NCBI GenBank assembly: GCA_038247415.1
Contig: JBBRUX010000009.1
Span: forward strand, 35,498-99,497
DNA length: 64,000 bases
Source: Chitinivibrionales bacterium
GTDB lineage: Bacteria > Fibrobacterota > Chitinivibrionia > Chitinivibrionales > WJKA01
Direction: 5' to 3'
A model generated the notes under the pieces. It worked only from the letters and a program-made list of their open reading frames with translations. It was not told the origin of the DNA and made no database searches. Below, one piece after another: positions 265 to 8,365 of the stretch. A program made the translations under genes and the position numbers. Every line of letters starts with the position of its first letter. Position 1 is the stretch's first letter.

Positions 265-1812
265 TTAAAAGTCAATTATAAGAAGGGTAATGTCATCTTC
301 TGGTGCAGTATGTGCACCACAGAATGTTTTGTGGCGCAAAAAGATTGTTTCCATAGCTTCTTTGGGAGAATGAGTGAGTCCTTCAATAACAGCGTCTTCG
401 AGCCTAGGGAGATCAAACATCTCCTCGGCGGCATTATGACTTTCGGTAATACCGTCTGTAAAGAGAACGAGCCGATCGCACCCGGGGATGTACTCCGAAA
501 TAATTTCATGCAGCATCATATCGGGAAAAATTCCAAGGAAAAGCCCATCGGCGCTAATATGCTCACAGGTTTTTGTGGCTTTGTTCGCGCGTAATATTGG
601 GCAATGGCCAGCAGATGAATGGGTAATTGTTTTGTTTCGGGTATCGACAATGGCATAAAAAACAGTAACGAAATTGTCGGTTTTAATCTCATTCATGAAT
701 GTTGTGTTAATGCGCTCAAGTGTTTTTTGGGGGGATGATTCATTGTGAGCATTGGATTTTAACACAACTTTTACCATAGACATAATAAGCGCTGATGCAA
801 TGCCATGTCCCGAAACATCGGCTACAATAATTCCATAGCGATCTTCCCCAAGCGGAAAAACATCGTAATAATCGCCGCCCACAGCAATAGCGGGAATATA
901 CCGCGCAGCGATTGTAAACGGTTTTATGTTCTGCAATTCGGAGGGCAATAACCCTTCCTGGATGCTTTTCGCTTGCTTAAGGTCGTTATTTATTTTGGTT
1001 TGCGCGATTTGAAGATCTCTGTTGACAATTCGTAATTGGTCGTTTGCAGAGGTGAGCGAGGTGTTTGCTTTTTCGAGTTCGTTTAAAATTCTAAAGTTCT
1101 CGATAATGATGCCAGCAAAATTAAGTATTGTTGACAATGTTGAAATATCATCGCTTGTGATTGTGGTATCCGAATTGTTGCGATCTATCCAGAGCACGCC
1201 TTCGGCTTTAAAACATTGACATGCAATACATTTGGATCTCCGTTCGTTTTCGGAGAGTGCGCCCAAAAGCTCTCCCGAGCCGGGTATCGACCAGCAATAA
1301 GGGTTGAATGAACCATATGCCGGACATGTCTGTCGATTGCACGATTTATACTCCCAGCATTTTCGGCTGGCTTTAGAAATGAGGGGCATTACAATATAAC
1401 GGTTGCTTGCCAAAAGCTTGCAGAATACATCATTATCAGGATCTGGCTGATCAACAATGAGATGCCTGTTGAGAAAAATTGCATCGGTTATGTCGCCACC
1501 TTCAAATCCAAGCGGTATCGAAAGGGAGGTGCGGTCGATATTTTCTATGCCCACCCACGAGTCGGGAATCAATTGAAAGTTTGGGGCATCGATTCTAAAA
1601 AGAATAACACGGTTGAACTGCAAAATTTCAACAATGCCCAAAAGCATTGTTTTGGTGATTCCAGGAAGATCGGTAGAAGAATTCATGACCTTAACGAGCT
1701 CATTAATAAGCGAATTGGTCATGAGCTGTAATTTAAGCTGGTCATTTTCTGCTTTGATCGATTCGATAAATAGATCGGGCTCTTGGTCTGAAGATTCTTC
1801 GGGAGGGTACAT
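265..1812 (-). CDS. SpoIIE/RsbU-like PP2C Ser/Thr phosphatase with GAF domain and Cys-rich insert
   Basis: VGGDYYD, ADVSGHG, LFTDGITE, DDITL motifs; coiled coil; N-terminal GAF interrupted by CWE..C..CPAY..CW..C..C.C. Confidence 0.92.
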   Translation of the reverse strand: MYPPEESSDQEPDLFIESIKAENDQLKLQLMTNSLINELVKVMNSSTDLPGITKTMLLGIVEILQFNRVILFRIDAPNFQLIPDSWVGIENIDRTSLSIPLGFEGGDITDAIFLNRHLIVDQPDPDNDVFCKLLASNRYIVMPLISKASRKCWEYKSCNRQTCPAYGSFNPYCWSIPGSGELLGALSENERRSKCIACQCFKAEGVLWIDRNNSDTTITSDDISTLSTILNFAGIIIENFRILNELEKANTSLTSANDQLRIVNRDLQIAQTKINNDLKQAKSIQEGLLPSELQNIKPFTIAARYIPAIAVGGDYYDVFPLGEDRYGIIVADVSGHGIASALIMSMVKVVLKSNAHNESSPQKTLERINTTFMNEIKTDNFVTVFYAIVDTRNKTITHSSAGHCPILRANKATKTCEHISADGLFLGIFPDMMLHEIISEYIPGCDRLVLFTDGITESHNAAEEMFDLPRLEDAVIEGLTHSPKEAMETIFLRHKTFCGAHTAPEDDITLLIIDF

Positions 1813-1971: not shown

Positions 1972-2655
1972 GTGAATATTCAGTACAGCAAGAAAAAGGA
2001 AGAAATGCGCAAAGACCCAGTTATGGATCTGATGGTCAAGGCAAAGGATTTTGCTCAAAATCAATCGCAGATTCTCCTGATTGTAGTTGGAGTAGTTCTT
2101 GTTAGTTTGGTTGGCTACTGGGCGTATAATGGAATGCAAAAAGATAAGCTTTCCAAGGCACAAGATGTTTTTGGAAAAGCTATGATTGCCTATGAGAAAA
2201 ACGATTTTTCTGCTGCAACAAGCGCTTTTAAAGAAGTAATCGAATCGTATCCGCAAAGTCCACATGCAGCAATGAGCGCTTTTTTGCTGGGCGATATCGG
2301 TGCAAAAATGAACAATTTCGATGATGCAATCTCATGGTATGAGAAAGCAAGTCGTAAAGCATCAAAAACTTCATTTATAGAAGGTGCAGCTCTGGAAGGA
2401 CTTGCAACCAATTACGAGTCAAAAGGTGATATTCCTAAGGCGATCGAATGCTTCGAAAAAGCAGCAGCCGATCCTTCTATTGCGTATCGTACCTCGTCGA
2501 TCCGCTGGAAATTGGCATTGCTTAACGAAGAAATCAAACAATACGATAAAGCGCTATCCTATTGCAGTCAAATTGTTTCCGATACTTCTGCACAGATGTT
2601 TCGTCAGAAAGCAGAAAATTTAAAAATCGAGATTGAAAATAAAAAAGCCCTGTAA
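1972..2655 (+). CDS. Membrane-anchored TPR protein (YfgM-like)
   Basis: AAGGAGG RBS, GTG start, single TM (ILLIVVGVVLVSLVGYWAY), TPR helices. Confidence 0.85.
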   Translation: MNIQYSKKKEEMRKDPVMDLMVKAKDFAQNQSQILLIVVGVVLVSLVGYWAYNGMQKDKLSKAQDVFGKAMIAYEKNDFSAATSAFKEVIESYPQSPHAAMSAFLLGDIGAKMNNFDDAISWYEKASRKASKTSFIEGAALEGLATNYESKGDIPKAIECFEKAAADPSIAYRTSSIRWKLALLNEEIKQYDKALSYCSQIVSDTSAQMFRQKAENLKIEIENKKAL

Positions 2656-2786: not shown

Positions 2787-3926
2787 ATGTCAGACATGAC
2801 AGAACCGATGCTTGCACAGGATAATTCCGATTGGGTTCTAGCTTTTCTCGAGTCGGTTGACTGCACAACACCGCTGCATCAAATATACTCGTACCTTCTT
2901 GAAAAAATCTGCGTTCAAGCTCAATGTGCACAGGCTTTTTTGGCGCTTTCAGATGCTTCCAAGTGGTGGGAGGTGTTTGCGTACACCCTCGAAAACTCCG
3001 TAGGGGAGTGGGTTGATATTCAGAAAACTAACAGGTACACGAAACGCACATTTTCTGGTCAGTATGATCACAGTTCTCCCCTTGAAATCGCTGATATCTT
3101 TCCAACCGCTACCTATACCAGTATTCCTTTCAAAGCCGAATTTGCTCAGTCGGCATGGCTTATTCTGCCCGTGTCGCATGCGGCAAAGAGTATTCCGCTA
3201 TTGGGAAGGCTCTGTTCGCATCTTTTAACTCAAAAATCTATATATTACTATGGACTTGCTACCGAATGTAAAGCGCGAGGCGCTAAGACTTTATCGACCA
3301 TGATCCATGATATTCGTAATCCACTCTCGGGAGTTACTGGTTTTGCGCAACTGCTTAAGAGAAAATTGACTGATGCAAAACAAATTGAATATTCTGAAAT
3401 TATTCTAACAACTCTTCGCCGTATCGAACAAACCGCATCTGAACCCGTACGCTTTGTTCGGGGGGATAGCGCGGAGGTTGAGATGGTTGCATGCAATGTT
3501 GATGAGATCCTTGCAACGACGCTTGATGGTATGAGCCAGAGCTCAACGATGCAGCATGTTCGGGTATTCTCTCGTTTGGAAAGTGGAGCTTCAATTCAAT
3601 TTGTTCCAGAGTGGCTTAAGCGGATAATTTCTGCTCTCATGGAAAATGCTACGGTATCGATTGCCGAAAAAGGCGAGATTAGCGTCTCCTCGCACCGCTT
3701 TGAGACACGCGTGGAAATTGTCATCCAAGACAGCGGCAAGGGAATACCGATTATGGTTCGTAATCATGTGGTTAAACCGTTGTTTGCATTCGATAAAGAA
3801 AAATCAGCAGGTCTAGGCTTGGCAATGGTAAGTTATATGGCCAAAGTAGGCGGTGGTACGGTGCAGGTTTCATCGGTTCCCTGCTATGGAACGCGCTGTG
3901 TTCTTTCATTTCCCCTCGGCTTGTAG
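2787..3926 (+). CDS. Cytoplasmic sensor histidine kinase
   Basis: H-box IHDIRNPL, N-box LMENA, G1 DSGKGIP, G2 GLGLAMV. Confidence 0.9.
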   Translation: MSDMTEPMLAQDNSDWVLAFLESVDCTTPLHQIYSYLLEKICVQAQCAQAFLALSDASKWWEVFAYTLENSVGEWVDIQKTNRYTKRTFSGQYDHSSPLEIADIFPTATYTSIPFKAEFAQSAWLILPVSHAAKSIPLLGRLCSHLLTQKSIYYYGLATECKARGAKTLSTMIHDIRNPLSGVTGFAQLLKRKLTDAKQIEYSEIILTTLRRIEQTASEPVRFVRGDSAEVEMVACNVDEILATTLDGMSQSSTMQHVRVFSRLESGASIQFVPEWLKRIISALMENATVSIAEKGEISVSSHRFETRVEIVIQDSGKGIPIMVRNHVVKPLFAFDKEKSAGLGLAMVSYMAKVGGGTVQVSSVPCYGTRCVLSFPLGL

Positions 3927-4009
3927 TGGTATTTCTCCCTTCTGCATAAAGCGCAATCCGCTTCCGATATTTATATTCATTCATATATAATTATCTTTCA
4001 GGAGGGTTT

Positions 4010-4363
4010 ATGAATTTTTTGGTATTAGACGATTTGAAAAAACGTAGGTCAGTTTTAGCCGATGCATTGCAGAAAAAACGACATTCAGCAGTTACCTGTG
4101 TTATCAGCCAAGATTTTATCAACGCGGTTGATGGTCCTTTGCCAGATAAGATTTTAATCGAAATGAAGACCTGGCTGCAAGGAAAATCAGTCTATAATTA
4201 TTTCAATATTTTGCCTAAACTTGAAAATATCCCCATAGTGTTGTACAATACTACTGATACTCATGCATCAATAGTTGGTCGCACACCTAACGAAAAAGAT
4301 CGCATTCTGCCAGAAGGCATTAAGCTTGATGAAATTATAAGCATTGCCGAGCAGGATGTATGA
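4010..4363 (+). CDS. Single-domain atypical (pseudo-)receiver protein
   Basis: FLVLDD start, PDKILIE (Glu at phospho-Asp position), IPIVLY; GGAGG RBS. Confidence 0.7.
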   Translation: MNFLVLDDLKKRRSVLADALQKKRHSAVTCVISQDFINAVDGPLPDKILIEMKTWLQGKSVYNYFNILPKLENIPIVLYNTTDTHASIVGRTPNEKDRILPEGIKLDEIISIAEQDV

Positions 4364-4376
4364 TAAGGATTGACGT

Positions 4377-6212
4377 ATGGCCAGTCGGGCATCACAAGTG
4401 TTTGTCTTTGCAGATACCGACAATGGCGGGGTCATTCATGTTGCAAATATTAAAGGCGGTGTAGGTAAGTCCACTGTTGCGACCAACCTTGCGGCCGCGC
4501 TTGGTAAAAAAGGACCAACCCTGCTCATCGATCTCGATGCGCAGGGGAGTGCCACCTTTGCATATGGTAGAGATCCAGCCGAATTCTCCTTTTCTTCATG
4601 GGATCTGTTTCGACATCGATACTCTCCCGAAAGCTCCTCAGATAAAAAGAAAACATTTCGATTAACCTTGCCAAGGCTTGAGGCAATGGTTTTTTCACCT
4701 ATTCTGGGAGTAGGGAATATTGCCAAGCTTTGTGTGCGCATAGAACAAGGCCTGGATCTTATTCCAGCAAATGGCTCGCTTTTTAATACCGTGCGATCGT
4801 ACCATCTCGAGAATTTTCTTTTTAATCTGGAAATCCTTCGTGAATTTTATAAATACATTATCCTCGATACTCCCTCTGTCTGGAATCGACTTACGCGCAT
4901 GTTGTATTGTAAGAGCGATTTGAATCTTATTCCCGTTACGCTTAATGCTCTAAGTACCCGCAGTTTGAGAGAATACCTTATCAATGTTAAAAAACTCTCT
5001 AATCGTAATACTCGGGTCAGGGTGCGAATTGTCAAGAATGAAGTGTATGGTCGTCAGGATTCTGCAATAAAAGGCAAAACGCGCACCATGTTCGAAAATC
5101 GCAAATTTCTTGAGTCATTGTGCGAGCAGATAGTGGTTAAAAATGAAACCGGCGTATCGGTGATTCCTCAAACAATGATGTTTGACCTTGAGATTCCCGA
5201 ATCAGCAACAGTGCGAGATGCGCAGGATGAAGGTCTTGCAGTTGCTCATTTTAAGCAATATTCCACAGCTTCAAAAGCGTTTTTCGATCTTGCTCAAAAA
5301 GTGCAGTATGTTTTAAATACGAAATCTGCGCCACCAACCCGAAATATATGGGATCGTCGTGACGAAATTGTTCGTCCCTTTGTTCACGCTGCGGGCATTG
5401 CAGGGTTTGCGTTTTTATGGTCGCTTAACCCTAAAGCAGATAATCAAATTCCTCCACGCCCTATAGCACCAGTTCAGCTCGTTGTGCCGCCAACGGGGAG
5501 CGTAGCCTATACAACGGGAGATGGAGAGCCCCTTTTTAGAATTGCAAAATATTCTATTTGTCATTTTAAAGCGATCGTCCCCGATAATGAAGATATCTAT
5601 CGATACCTTTTAGAAACTCTCGATATTTACAATAGAACTCGTTTCGAGTCTGAACAGAAAATTGCTTCCGCGGAAACGGTGCCCAGTGGTATTACGCTCC
5701 ATTTTTATCCGCCAAGTACTCTTTCTAACCCTCGTGAAAAACAGATTCTCCCTGCGTACGAATTTTTCATGTCTCTGGTTCAAGATAAATATCCGTATAT
5801 AACCGGAGATTGGTGTGAACGCGGCACAGGAGGTGGAACTCCTCATTATGGGATAGATATCGCGGGCACTCGGGGATCTGAAATTATTTGTCCCATCGAT
5901 GGAACTGCTTATTTGCTCGATAATCCGAGCGTTGGAAAATGTATTGGTGTAGTTCGTGATGGTACCGTGCTCTTTTTTGCCCATATGGATCAGCGCTACT
6001 TTAATTCGGGTGAACATATTAAAAAAGGAATGCCTCTTGGTAAATTAGGGCTTACAGGACACACGAGTGGACCCCATGTACATGTGGGATATGGACTAAA
6101 GTCTCCTGCAGCCGATGGCCTTCCTTTTGGCAATTCCTACTACAAAGTAACCGACCCCAAATTATTTTTCTACCGACAGGCATTTATTGCAAGTATCACT
6201 CCTAACGAGTAA
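4377..6212 (+). CDS. ParA/Soj-family ATPase fused to M23 metallo-endopeptidase
   Basis: Deviant Walker A KGGVGKST, LIDLDAQG, IILDTP; hydrophobic segment; HYGID, FAHM and GPHVH M23 motifs. Confidence 0.9.
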   Translation: MASRASQVFVFADTDNGGVIHVANIKGGVGKSTVATNLAAALGKKGPTLLIDLDAQGSATFAYGRDPAEFSFSSWDLFRHRYSPESSSDKKKTFRLTLPRLEAMVFSPILGVGNIAKLCVRIEQGLDLIPANGSLFNTVRSYHLENFLFNLEILREFYKYIILDTPSVWNRLTRMLYCKSDLNLIPVTLNALSTRSLREYLINVKKLSNRNTRVRVRIVKNEVYGRQDSAIKGKTRTMFENRKFLESLCEQIVVKNETGVSVIPQTMMFDLEIPESATVRDAQDEGLAVAHFKQYSTASKAFFDLAQKVQYVLNTKSAPPTRNIWDRRDEIVRPFVHAAGIAGFAFLWSLNPKADNQIPPRPIAPVQLVVPPTGSVAYTTGDGEPLFRIAKYSICHFKAIVPDNEDIYRYLLETLDIYNRTRFESEQKIASAETVPSGITLHFYPPSTLSNPREKQILPAYEFFMSLVQDKYPYITGDWCERGTGGGTPHYGIDIAGTRGSEIICPIDGTAYLLDNPSVGKCIGVVRDGTVLFFAHMDQRYFNSGEHIKKGMPLGKLGLTGHTSGPHVHVGYGLKSPAADGLPFGNSYYKVTDPKLFFYRQAFIASITPNE

Positions 6213-6272: not shown

Positions 6273-6935
6273 GTGGTAAATACTTCATATAAACGCATCG
6301 CATTAATTCTTTCGATGGTTCTTCCACTGTCTCTGTCATCATGCTTTGTTGCAACAAATGTGCATGGCGGAAAACTATTGCCAGAGGGGAGCGTAGAACT
6401 AATTCCCTCGGTTTCTTGTGCTTATCGAAACCCCCTCGAACCGAAACGGCCTATGGATGCTATTATGCTTTTGGGGGGGCATTTTGGTTTTGGTCTGTCG
6501 CAGTTTGTAAATATACGAGGGGGGTACCAATATCTGACTCTCGCCCCAGGCATTGTTGATGGGGGAAATAGGTTTGTTGGCAAAAAAGGAAATGTTTACG
6601 AAGTTGAGCCCGTGTTTGCTCTTAAAAAAAATCGTAGCTCTATTTCGTGCGCTTTTGCTCTTTCAAGTGCAGATAGTCTTTATCAAATTGTGCCGGGATA
6701 TTTTTATACTCATACAGTTAACAAATACATCGATATACATTTGTCACAAAAAGCATGTGGTGGGTTTTTTCTTAATAGAGGATTATCGATTGCGCTTAAT
6801 TCTAACGTGGGGATTCAAATTAAACCGACAAAAACCTCGCCTCTTTCGTTGCTTGTGTTTGCTGGGTGTTTGTATAGTTACGCACTTTTTCAGGCCACTG
6901 CAAGCGTAAGTATGCCCATTGTGGTTGTTCAATAG
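6273..6935 (+). CDS. Hypothetical lipoprotein / small outer-membrane protein
   Basis: Signal with lipobox-like LSSC; amphipathic beta-strand pattern. Confidence 0.6.
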   Translation: MVNTSYKRIALILSMVLPLSLSSCFVATNVHGGKLLPEGSVELIPSVSCAYRNPLEPKRPMDAIMLLGGHFGFGLSQFVNIRGGYQYLTLAPGIVDGGNRFVGKKGNVYEVEPVFALKKNRSSISCAFALSSADSLYQIVPGYFYTHTVNKYIDIHLSQKACGGFFLNRGLSIALNSNVGIQIKPTKTSPLSLLVFAGCLYSYALFQATASVSMPIVVVQ

Positions 6936-6977: not shown

Positions 6978-7511
6978 TTATTGAACCGTCTTTTTTTGTT
7001 TGCAGCCCGTACTATCCGCGTTCATGGGGCACATTTTGCCATCCATTTGGCAATGCTTTCCTCCCTGATCTTCTCCCCATTTATTGCATTGGGCACCAGA
7101 TTGGTTGGCAAGATGGCAAGAAGCCATTTTTTGGAATTGTTCATCGGTAAGTACTGATTTAAGCTGCAAAAGATAGTCAAAGCGTGCTTTAGTTGCTTCG
7201 GTTGCGAGTTGCCCACTCTGAACGCTATACGTTTCCAATAGCATTGTATCGGGAGTTTTCTTAAGAAACTCATCTTTAATTTTTAATCGCAGAGTGGCAG
7301 ACTTTTCCTGTTGGGCAGTTCGCGCTACCTTCCCTTGTTCGTGAAGAGCCTTGAGCTTGGTTTTTTGATCTGGGGTAAGGTTGAGCTCCGCAAATTGATT
7401 ATGCCGTTCCCCAGTTCCTTTTTTTTGACATTGCGTTGCAGGGTCGGCCGCAAGAGCGAATGTTCCCCAAACGAGAATAGTTGACATGATGCATAAAGTT
7501 TTGATACGCAT
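6978..7511 (-). CDS. Spy/CpxP-family periplasmic protein
   Basis: Signal peptide from MRIKTL (7511); two LTxxQ motifs (LNLTPDQ, VLTDEQ). Confidence 0.85.
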   Translation of the reverse strand: MRIKTLCIMSTILVWGTFALAADPATQCQKKGTGERHNQFAELNLTPDQKTKLKALHEQGKVARTAQQEKSATLRLKIKDEFLKKTPDTMLLETYSVQSGQLATEATKARFDYLLQLKSVLTDEQFQKMASCHLANQSGAQCNKWGEDQGGKHCQMDGKMCPMNADSTGCKQKKTVQ

Positions 7512-7536
7512 GTTTTTTCCTTTGAAAAAATGAATA

Positions 7537-7845
7537 TTATTCGGATGCATTATCGGCTAAAACAATAGTCGATAGCTCAGGTTCAGACAGAGTACCATTT
7601 AAGAATTCATTTGCCTCATGGAGATCCTCCTCGATTTCCGCTGAGAGAGCAGTTTGATGTGAAGGTGTATGGAAAACACTAAAAGCAATAAACGATGTTA
7701 CGGTTAACGCTGTCATGCATGAAAGCAAAAGTGCTCTCCGAGCATGACGCCGTATTTTTGAACGCCTATAAATGGTTTCAAACAGGTGCAATGGAACATC
7801 GGGTATCGACTGTTCCAAAGCTTGGTCGCGATGTCGTAGGTTCAT
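7537..7845 (-). CDS. Putative anti-sigma factor
   Basis: Small single-TM protein directly after ECF sigma gene; GGAGG RBS. Confidence 0.7.
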   Translation of the reverse strand: MNLRHRDQALEQSIPDVPLHLFETIYRRSKIRRHARRALLLSCMTALTVTSFIAFSVFHTPSHQTALSAEIEEDLHEANEFLNGTLSEPELSTIVLADNASE

Positions 7846-8365
7846 ATGAGCCCTCCCTTGATAATTTTTCTTTAATACGGCATAGGGCTACACGCAACGC
7901 ACCAGCAGATCGGTGAGTAATTTCTGAGAGTTCCTCAAAGGAAATCCCCGATATTTCATGTGCCATTAGTAGAAATCTATCGTTTGGACTGAGCATTTTT
8001 AAGGTATCAGAAAGAATGATTTTATCAACACTTGATATTTCTTGAGCGATGATGGTTTCGGGAGTAATAGTAGGGCTTCTTTTTTGCGCATGTCGTTTTT
8101 CTTTGAGTGCTATCCCGATTGATGTGTTGTAGCTTATGCGAAATAACCATGTTGAAAAGGCCGATTTGTTATTAAATTTATGCAAGTTGCAAAAAATGCG
8201 AATAAAGGTTTCTTGCAACATGTCTTCGCAGAGTTCCTTGTTACCATTGGCAGTTCGGTATATGACGCGCCACAGGAACGGAGCATAGTGTTCGTAGAGT
8301 GCTTTGCACGCGCTTTTGTCGGATGCTTGAGCTTGAGCAATAATTGTAGAATGCAGCTCTTTCAT
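7778..8365 (-). CDS. ECF RNA polymerase sigma factor
   Basis: EDMLQETFIR, FSTWLFRISYN region 2; GISFEELSEI region 4. Confidence 0.92.
   Translation of the reverse strand: MKELHSTIIAQAQASDKSACKALYEHYAPFLWRVIYRTANGNKELCEDMLQETFIRIFCNLHKFNNKSAFSTWLFRISYNTSIGIALKEKRHAQKRSPTITPETIIAQEISSVDKIILSDTLKMLSPNDRFLLMAHEISGISFEELSEITHRSAGALRVALCRIKEKLSREGSYEPTTSRPSFGTVDTRCSIAPV

Follow-up and report, generated by a model that had tools for sequence, protein, structure and literature searches.

How bacteria restrain the hydrolases that cut their peptidoglycan is a long-standing question. Known means of control are the FtsEX-EnvC relay, which is of the ATP-binding cassette (ABC) type, autoinhibitory domains, proteolysis, and cytoskeletal recruitment, as in the case of LmdC and a bactofilin. 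Here we describe a protein of 611 amino acids (aa) encoded in a stretch of 64,000 nucleotides (nt), hereafter the window, from a Chitinivibrionales bacterium of the phylum Fibrobacterota (assembly GCA_038247415.1, contig JBBRUX010000009.1, positions 35,498 to 99,497). It is a real, conserved single protein that joins a ParA-type ATPase to an intact M23 (LytM-type) metallopeptidase. A ParA-type ATPase welded to an active-type M23 enzyme, especially one with a receiver protein as partner, would be a new regulatory solution.

Two described systems resemble this protein in how a hydrolase is controlled. In Hyphomonas neptunium and Rhodospirillum rubrum, the consulted sections of the report on LmdC describe a bitopic M23 enzyme that is steered via its cytoplasmic part (PMC10945521). 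LmdC is an N-in single-pass protein with an intact C-terminal M23 domain in the periplasm, controlled by a positional protein; we predict the same topology for the protein described here. In those sections, however, the cytoplasmic tail of LmdC has approximately 38 residues and binds a separate bactofilin, and the periplasmic part contains a coiled coil, whereas the present protein would hold a 315-residue ParA-type ATPase in the cytoplasm and a LysM-like spacer in the periplasm.

The second system is FtsEX-EnvC, in which, according to the portions of the source drawn on here, ATP drives control, across the membrane, of a LytM-domain protein in the periplasm (PMC12505981). In this system, as in FtsEX-PcsB/RipC/CwlO, the state of a cytoplasmic ATPase is relayed to a periplasmic LytM-fold protein governing wall hydrolysis, and we propose a comparable relay here. 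In contrast, FtsE is an ABC ATPase acting via the four-helix permease FtsX, and EnvC is a separate, catalytically dead activator; in the present protein, one chain comprises a ParA ATPase of the SIMIBI class, a single helix, and an M23 domain of the active type.

The two halves also have separate relatives. Soj/ParA, MinD, FlhG, McdA, BcsQ, and MipZ share with the N-terminal half the fold, the deviant Walker A motif with its signature lysine, and the A' and B motifs, but they are soluble or peripherally membrane-bound and their cargo is separate. To our knowledge, all other known ParA/MinD ATPases are positioning machines of this kind, either soluble or peripheral. TadZ/CpaE, as far as the consulted text describes it, combines an atypical receiver domain with a MinD/ParA ATPase, as may be the case here between two proteins; in TadZ the receiver is the N-terminal part of one fusion protein that places a pilus machine, whereas here it is encoded by a separate gene upstream and the ATPase is joined to a wall hydrolase. 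ShyA (Foldseek match 1.6e-8), MepM, and Csd3 carry an active M23 domain packed on N-terminal accessory domains and thus resemble the C-terminal half, the activity of which is predicted; they are soluble or lipid-anchored periplasmic proteins and have no cytoplasmic domain.

The preliminary description of this DNA had suggested that the architecture was uncharacterized, and our search of the literature yielded no report of a fusion between a ParA/MinD ATPase and a peptidoglycan hydrolase. The words “peptidoglycan” and “fused” do not occur in the consulted part of a 2024 review of the ParA/MinD family (PMC11407121). The components, and the principle of a membrane-anchored hydrolase under cytoplasmic control, are known already; the combination, the class of ATPase used, and the receiver partner are new.

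A ParA-type ATPase and an M23 peptidase in one chain

Our analysis confirmed that the gene is one uninterrupted open frame on the forward strand, with uniform base composition along its length. In the Pfam scan, AAA_31 matched residues 19-210 (3.6e-22, 79.6 bits against a curated cut-off of 27) and Peptidase_M23 (PF01551) matched residues 489-571 (2e-13, 50.8 bits against a gathering cut-off of 28.7), so that both domains proposed in the preliminary description scored above their cut-offs; CbiA, ParA, and MipZ gave further matches on the N-terminal part. The motifs lay exactly where they had been placed, namely KGGVGKST from nt 4452 (K26), LIDLDAQG, IILDTP, and HYGID from nt 5844 (H490), and the M23 zinc set is intact, with HYGID at H490 and HVH at H567-H569 (nt 6075-6083).

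A search of 5.8 billion proteins yielded at least 250 homologues carrying both domains. The best 120 of these were all 604-650 aa long, were 50-59% identical over 97-100% of the query, and all contained PF01551 and PF13614; the relatives are therefore fused, and the single chain is genuine. Databases name the homologues “AAA family ATPase” (Chitinivibrionales, Chitinispirillaceae) or “BcsQ / MepM” (JGI). Contigs from three sequencing runs of one study covered the junction between ATPase, helix, and M23 domain (spans 5180-5879, 3900-5484, and 4562-5543) with 0 differences and 0 gaps, and hence without the stop or indel that a false fusion might have left there; these runs possibly represent the source sample and are not independent evidence, so the comparison adds little beyond the assembly.

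The gene was split in two of 14 related loci, into frames of 427 and 172 aa (L028, 7980-9841) and of 512 and 93 aa (L034, 7992-9821). Both breaks were inside the periplasmic half, and either pseudogene formation or assembly indels may explain them. When short forms encoding the periplasmic half alone were sought, 21 C-terminal-half forms were returned, mostly on contigs of approximately 1-2 kb, with no sign of a common split form.

The N-terminal domain belongs to the ParA/MinD (deviant Walker A, SIMIBI) superfamily, as it has the signature-lysine Walker A motif, the A' and B motifs, and the Soj/MinD fold. In an alignment of 34 homologues (A1), K26 to T33, D52, D54, and D164 were invariant in 34/34 at 50-59% identity; in the tail preceding the domain, F11 and D13 were nearly invariant and D15 was invariant. 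The best Foldseek matches were the Soj/ParA chains 9a6n, 6iub, 1wcv, and 2bek, with TM-scores on the target of 0.72-0.82, followed by FlhG, McdA, BcsQ, and MinD (E values of the whole set, 4.9e-15 to 1e-8).

Assignment to a named family was less direct, since in NCBIfam the matches to ParA_partition, BcsQ, MinD, and several M23 endopeptidases were all partial and below threshold. ParA_partition (NF041546) reached 57.6 bits against an equivalog cut-off of 180, and no ParB is encoded in the window, as the preliminary description had noted; ParB_N was matched twice in the genome, on contigs C2 and C37. MinD (TIGR01968) reached 23.8 bits against 212.9, and by hydropathy analysis (Kyte-Doolittle), the amphipathic C-terminal helix of the MinD type is replaced by a hydrophobic, putatively spanning helix. 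BcsQ (TIGR03371) reached 39.1 bits against 157.85, and no bcs genes were present among the neighbors. The MinD, BcsQ, MipZ, and NifH-type names given by Pfam, NCBIfam, and JGI were rejected, as they all rest on the first 40-60 residues. A bacterial tyrosine kinase of the Wzc type was rejected as well: the TIGR01007 match is confined to the P-loop region (25.9 bits against 108), the predicted topology is reversed, and no Tyr cluster was seen.

A basic stretch at residues 217-268 (nt 5025-5180; consensus RIVKNEVFG...KGKTRTM.ENRKFLE) is strongly conserved, and was modeled with a predicted local distance difference test (pLDDT) score below 50. Within residues 217-243, R217, K220, K234, and R242 were invariant in the 34 homologues. 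This stretch may serve to bind DNA or a partner.

The C-terminal domain is an M23 peptidase by its PF01551 score, its HxxxD and HxH ligands with the catalytic histidine, and its beta-sandwich fold. H490, D494, H536, H567, and H569 were invariant both in the 34 homologues and in 31 proteins of a sister clade described below (alignment A3), and the catalytic residues align with those of Helicobacter pylori Csd3 (the best sequence match in the PDB, 2.5e-9), ShyA, LytM, and lysostaphin. Modeling of the whole protein with AlphaFold2 gave a moderate result (pLDDT 72.6, predicted template modeling score, pTM, 0.46). Residues 355-611, modeled from a 62-row alignment, formed one confident unit (pLDDT 94.1, pTM 0.89), in which a beta-alpha-alpha-beta domain (residues 376-443) is followed by a helix and the M23 sandwich. 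VIA-align matched the M23 fold to the LytM domain of DipM (Z 16.5, root mean square deviation 2.8, 125 aligned residues), the active enzymes EnpA (16.1) and LytM (15.6), and the LytM domain of EnvC (16.0-16.1). An invariant cysteine, C480 (nt 5814-5816, motif GDWCERG), precedes a glycine-rich loop of low confidence (5823-5843) that leads to H490; C480 is lost in most of the sister clade.

The small domain, which packs on the peptidase in the model, corresponds to the segment that the preliminary description had called LysM-like. The structural likeness was found, in weak form: the LysM chains 7aeb_M, 4b9h, 7pvc, 4uz2, and 5k2l matched with Z 3.9-5.2 over 49-60 aligned residues, which is below the level for a firm fold call for a domain modeled only within the 355-611 unit. 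The sequence gave no corresponding result, with no LysM family among the Pfam matches at E <= 1. “LysM-like” is therefore a fair label, but unproven.

Between the two halves, the hydrophobic stretch of the preliminary description, FVHAAGIAGFAFLWSL, covers residues 335-350 (nt 5379-5426) and is part of a long helix in the AlphaFold2 model (residues 324-350). Its 19-residue Kyte-Doolittle mean is 1.32, the second-highest peak of this protein. At the same aligned position, 33 of 34 family members had their highest hydropathy peak (1.3-2.4), and the hydrophobic segment that the preliminary description had taken for a putative membrane segment is thus conserved in the family. Lys and Arg were more numerous on the N-terminal side of the helix across family members; in this protein R322, R327, R328, and R333 precede the helix, and one Lys follows it. 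The N-terminus contains no signal-peptide-like segment. Since an ATPase needs the cytoplasm and an M23 enzyme needs the wall, the only coherent topology is a single pass with the N-terminus inside and the C-terminus outside, and the protein is thus predicted to be bitopic. In the linker that follows the helix, R361, P362, A364, and P365 were invariant among the 34 homologues. The positions of these elements and of the neighboring genes are given in Table 1.

Table 1. Positions of the fusion gene (P0001), its parts, and the neighboring genes in the window
Feature	Position (nt)	Strand	Basis
P0001: ParA-type ATPase, transmembrane helix, linker, LysM-like domain, M23 peptidase	4377..6212	+	Frame, Pfam, homologues
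N-terminal tail F9-T14, part of conserved FxDxDNGG motif; predicted receiver contact	4401..4418	+	Complex model, alignment
Soj/ParA-fold ATPase domain, residues ~19-315, predicted cytoplasmic	4431..5321	+	Pfam, Foldseek
Deviant Walker A KGGVGKST, residues 26-33 (K26 signature lysine, K31 P-loop lysine)	4452..4475	+	Invariant 34/34
Walker A' DLD (D52, D54)	4530-4538	+	34-homologue alignment
Walker B IILDTP (D164 invariant)	4857..4874	+	34-homologue alignment
Single hydrophobic helix, residues ~331-350; putative N-in/C-out anchor	5367..5426	+	Kyte-Doolittle, AlphaFold2 helix 324-350
Linker motif PRPIAPVQ, predicted periplasmic; family consensus PRPxAPQQ	5454..5477	+	34-homologue alignment
LysM-like beta-alpha-alpha-beta domain, residues ~373-450	5493..5726	+	AlphaFold2 model, VIA-align
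M23 (LytM-type) metallopeptidase domain, residues ~460-600	5754..6176	+	Pfam PF01551, conservation, VIA-align
M23 residues H490/D494; H536; H567/H569	5844-5858; 5982-5984; 6075-6083	+	Alignment
117-aa receiver-type (CheY-like) partner gene, directly upstream; predicted pseudo-receiver here, E51 at acceptor position	4010..4363	+	Orthologues, complex model
Histidine kinase (HisKA + HATPase_c), upstream of receiver gene	2787..3926	+	Pfam; at this position in some lineages only
TPR_21 (YfgM-like) membrane TPR (tetratricopeptide repeat) protein	1972..2655	+	Pfam; syntenic in 11/14 loci
SpoIIE/PP2C phosphatase, divergently transcribed	265..1812	-	Pfam; syntenic in 8/14 loci

Distribution and the P-loop-less sister clade

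The family is narrow: an exhaustive search of 1.84 billion representatives of 50% clusters gave just 35 clusters at E <= 1e-30 and 121 at 1e-10. The ESM Atlas contained a 71-member cluster with both domains and a 95-member cluster of approximately 505 aa with M23 alone, both commonest in Fibrobacterota. Among the 80 related loci listed, only 14 were full-length relatives, the remaining 66 being ordinary ParA genes from other phyla; this listing therefore sets no bound on the range of the family.

The distribution within the phylum was analyzed in a sample of 201 genomes, in which full-length or large partial matches at E <= 1e-129 were counted as orthologues; the sample includes one unpublished genome (G194) that gave weak matches only and on which no claim rests. 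An orthologue was present in all six other genomes of the same family and in 58 of 74 genomes of the same order, as well as in families f11, f12, f13, f14, and f16 of other Fibrobacterota classes. The 16 genomes of the order in which none was found (best E approximately 1e-14 to 1e-17) comprised 7/8 of family f3, 2/2 of g11, 6/7 of g17, and G077; no orthologue was found in families f15 and f17 of the sample. Eight full-length matches were flagged with one or two internal stops.

In the largest family sampled, f10, which is probably Fibrobacteraceae, all 78 genomes matched only at positions ~300-606, in frames of 430-552 aa. This sister clade keeps the hydrophobic helix, the LysM-like domain, and the M23 catalytic residues, while the P-loop was absent in 31/31 proteins. 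A single Fibrobacter-type protein aligned with the A1 profile over residues 361-600 only, and homology of the N-terminal domain became visible only in the profile-profile comparison of A3 with A1 (hhalign), in which residues 36-608 aligned with a probability of 100% and an E value of 9.4e-83. With homology but no P-loop, the ParA domain of the sister clade is thus degenerate. An intermediate was found at locus L020, where the AAA_31 match is retained and Walker A is lost. Intact and P-loop-less natural versions in sister clades thus form a built-in experiment.

The receiver-type partner and the proposed switch

The gene directly upstream of the fusion gene encodes a protein that is receiver-type in the family. 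Among 15 orthologues, 11 matched PF00072 (best 1.2e-9), 10 had the acceptor Asp, and nine had the conserved Lys. The copy in this genome gave no Pfam match at E <= 0.1 and has E51 and E102 at the acceptor and conserved-Lys positions; by its sequence it is a pseudo-receiver. It directly follows the histidine kinase gene (2787-3926). The receiver gene is usually single-copy across the phylum sample. By hand tally, it was directly upstream of the enzyme gene on the same strand in 61 of the 64 genomes in which coordinates of both were listed; the exceptions were G091 and two genomes, G053 and G063, in which a contig end intervenes. In the sister clade, 76 of 78 genomes keep the receiver.

A complex model of the receiver with ATPase residues 1-320 (given as 1-322) gave an interface score (ipSAE) of 0.63, compared with 0.00 for the best control. 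Of 157 solved complexes, 116 reached the mark applied to this score, as did 2 of 215 mismatched pairs; these counts are only rough because our own alignments were used. Three runs shared at least 70% of the contacts, and the pLDDT of the partner was at least 84. In the model, the receiver binds with its active-site face (D8, residues 32-34, T54, 57-61, and 63-64), and the ATPase domain with its conserved tail residues 9-14 (9-11 and 13-14), G46/P47, and the likewise conserved R155-K159. The model thus suggests that the receiver docks on the ATPase domain, and the conserved receiver partner may point to signal input rather than to ParB-style patterning.

We favor, with moderate confidence, the reading that the protein is a bitopic peptidoglycan endopeptidase and that ATP-dependent dimerization, together with receiver input, determines from the cytoplasmic side how active it is or where it is placed. 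ATP-sandwich dimers of ParA/MinD ATPases form via the signature lysine, according to the consulted part of the family review (PMC11407121). ATP binding would drive the ParA domains into such a sandwich dimer, and dimerization would bring together or orient the two helices and the two periplasmic LysM-like/M23 units. The gathered M23 units would then gate or concentrate cross-link cleavage, and hydrolysis would release the dimer. The receiver protein would dock on the ATPase domain and bias the switch, and in many lineages two-component signaling would thereby be linked to wall cleavage. In this scheme we infer the topology, the ATP-dependent dimerization, the peptidoglycan cleavage, and their coupling. 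The precedents of FtsEX-EnvC and LmdC make the proposed switch plausible.

Only tentatively would we go further and regard the protein as the first ParA/MinD-class ATPase that serves as a transmembrane switch, in which ATP- and receiver-controlled dimerization is passed by one helix to an attached active endopeptidase. If this were so, the place and time of wall cutting would be licensed directly by two-component signals or the state of the nucleoid, the protein would be functionally equivalent to FtsEX-EnvC while consisting of one chain and using an unrelated class of ATPase, and the P-loop-less sister clade would represent a natural “locked” variant. As everything is contained in a single polypeptide, in vitro assays could directly test the coupling of wall cleavage to nucleotide state. 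The protein also provides a first functional entry point to the cell envelope of Fibrobacterota, a fiber- and chitin-degrading phylum with little known cell biology.

Several observations weigh against regulation by ATP and receiver as we propose it. The main caveat is the P-loop-less sister clade, whose N-terminal domain, to judge by its sequence, works without ATP; the loss of the P-loop with retention of the M23 half implies that ATP turnover is not indispensable to the core job of the family. The helix of this protein is marginally hydrophobic. E51 and the missing Lys make phosphotransfer doubtful in this genome. No receiver match was found in six genomes with a full-length enzyme (G029, G085, G004, G007, G013, and G016), while at least 12 genomes keep the TPR and receiver genes without the enzyme, with unrelated genes following the receiver in 4/4 inspected. 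Furthermore, since TadZ-type proteins pair a receiver with a MinD/ParA ATPase, the docking score may reflect likeness to solved structures. The sister clade in particular keeps two other explanations live.

In the first of these, the ATP cycle would serve mainly to bind a cytoplasmic surface, such as the nucleoid, a polar landmark, or a partner gradient, and the hydrolase would be confined to membrane zones rather than switched on. This corresponds in essence to the localized wall cutting of the preliminary description, whose suggested coupling to ATP-dependent dimerization or nucleoid binding is plausible. The N-terminal domain is closest in fold and motifs (DLDxQG, KGGVGKS) to chromosomal Soj/ParA, whose members bind nucleoid DNA as ATP-bound dimers according to the consulted part of the review (PMC11407121), and the conserved basic residues within 217-243 could contact DNA or a partner. 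Sequence alignments with PDB entries extend to about residue 235 and end short of the region with the DNA-binding residues of Soj. For LmdC, the text consulted shows that cytoplasmic recruitment of a bitopic M23 enzyme works (PMC10945521). However, a ParA tethered to the membrane cannot, unlike soluble ParA, diffuse over the nucleoid, the locus encodes no ParB or MinE-like stimulator, and the sister clade cannot run an ATP cycle. We consider such positioning unlikely, while giving it some weight.

The second explanation takes the N-terminal domain as a structural platform, for dimerization or for partners, of a housekeeping anchored endopeptidase, with the retained nucleotide binding being structural or vestigial and non-regulatory. 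This would account for the sister clade, which lost the P-loop in 31/31 proteins and yet kept the M23 residues and the receiver neighbor (in f10, the module in 78/78 genomes and the receiver in 76/78). In the clade of the present gene, by contrast, all nucleotide-binding and catalytic ATPase motifs are invariant in 34 sequences at just 50-59% identity, which argues for selection on ATP chemistry. A scaffold role seems rather improbable to us.

A third explanation, which we regard as very improbable, is that the M23 domain is a non-catalytic LytM factor that activates amidases, as EnvC, NlpD, and DipM do, with the ATPase in the part of FtsE. VIA-align gave its highest score for the LytM domain of DipM (Z 16.5), with EnvC close behind (16.0-16.1), and the genome has two Amidase_3 genes. 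Degenerate LytM factors lack zinc ligands and catalytic histidines, whereas in the present family all of these residues are invariant, and the genome has its own bona fide FtsE.

That an assembly or sequencing error fused two adjacent genes, as the two split loci among 14 and the 21 short forms in the protein database might suggest, is already refuted by the homologue, phylum-sample, and cluster searches, since there are at least 250 independent full-length homologues, the breaks of the split copies are not at the ATPase/helix junction, the short forms are mostly on very short contigs, and the three-run contigs, possibly from the source sample, are identical over the junction.

Gene neighborhood and genome background

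The conserved upstream order is a divergent SpoIIE/PP2C phosphatase, TPR_21, a histidine kinase (in this lineage), the 117-aa protein, and the fusion gene. The histidine kinase also occupies this position in L016 and L035 and is missing from it in the majority of other loci. The phosphatase has a Cys-rich stretch (CWEYKSCNRQTCPAYGSFNPYCW) ahead of its phosphatase domain. The pair of TPR_21 and receiver genes persists in lineages without the fusion gene (L127-L130, in genomes G049, G025, G009, and G006). In G009, the gene immediately after the receiver gene is homologous to the one found downstream of the fusion in L035, an arrangement that resembles a clean deletion of the fusion.

The genome comprises 3.84 Mb and is 96% complete. 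It contains no MinD above the curated cut-off (best 97.9 bits against 212.9), while its FtsE is above the curated cut-off. The fusion is the most divergent of its seven M23 genes. On contig C2 (L133, 2002-4537, reverse strand), a canonical parA (260 aa), a parB (304 aa), and a separate M23 gene (282 aa) are arranged head to tail, almost gapless, and this second association of ParA with M23 in the genome might hint at the origin of the fusion. With seven M23 genes and a canonical parA-parB pair on C2, the fusion is neither the only endopeptidase nor the chromosomal ParA of this bacterium.

Downstream genes showed no synteny among relatives. The roles in division, polar machine insertion, or vesiculation that the preliminary description had put forward thus found no support in the gene context. 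Directly downstream, a 220-aa open reading frame (6273-6935, forward strand) has no Pfam family and carries an N-terminal lipobox-like motif, LSLSSC; it is not conserved beside the fusion. It is followed on the reverse strand (6978-8365) by genes for an LTXXQ (Spy/CpxP-like) periplasmic protein, a small anti-sigma-like protein, and an extracytoplasmic function (ECF) sigma factor, which are non-syntenic in relatives and look like an envelope-stress unit.

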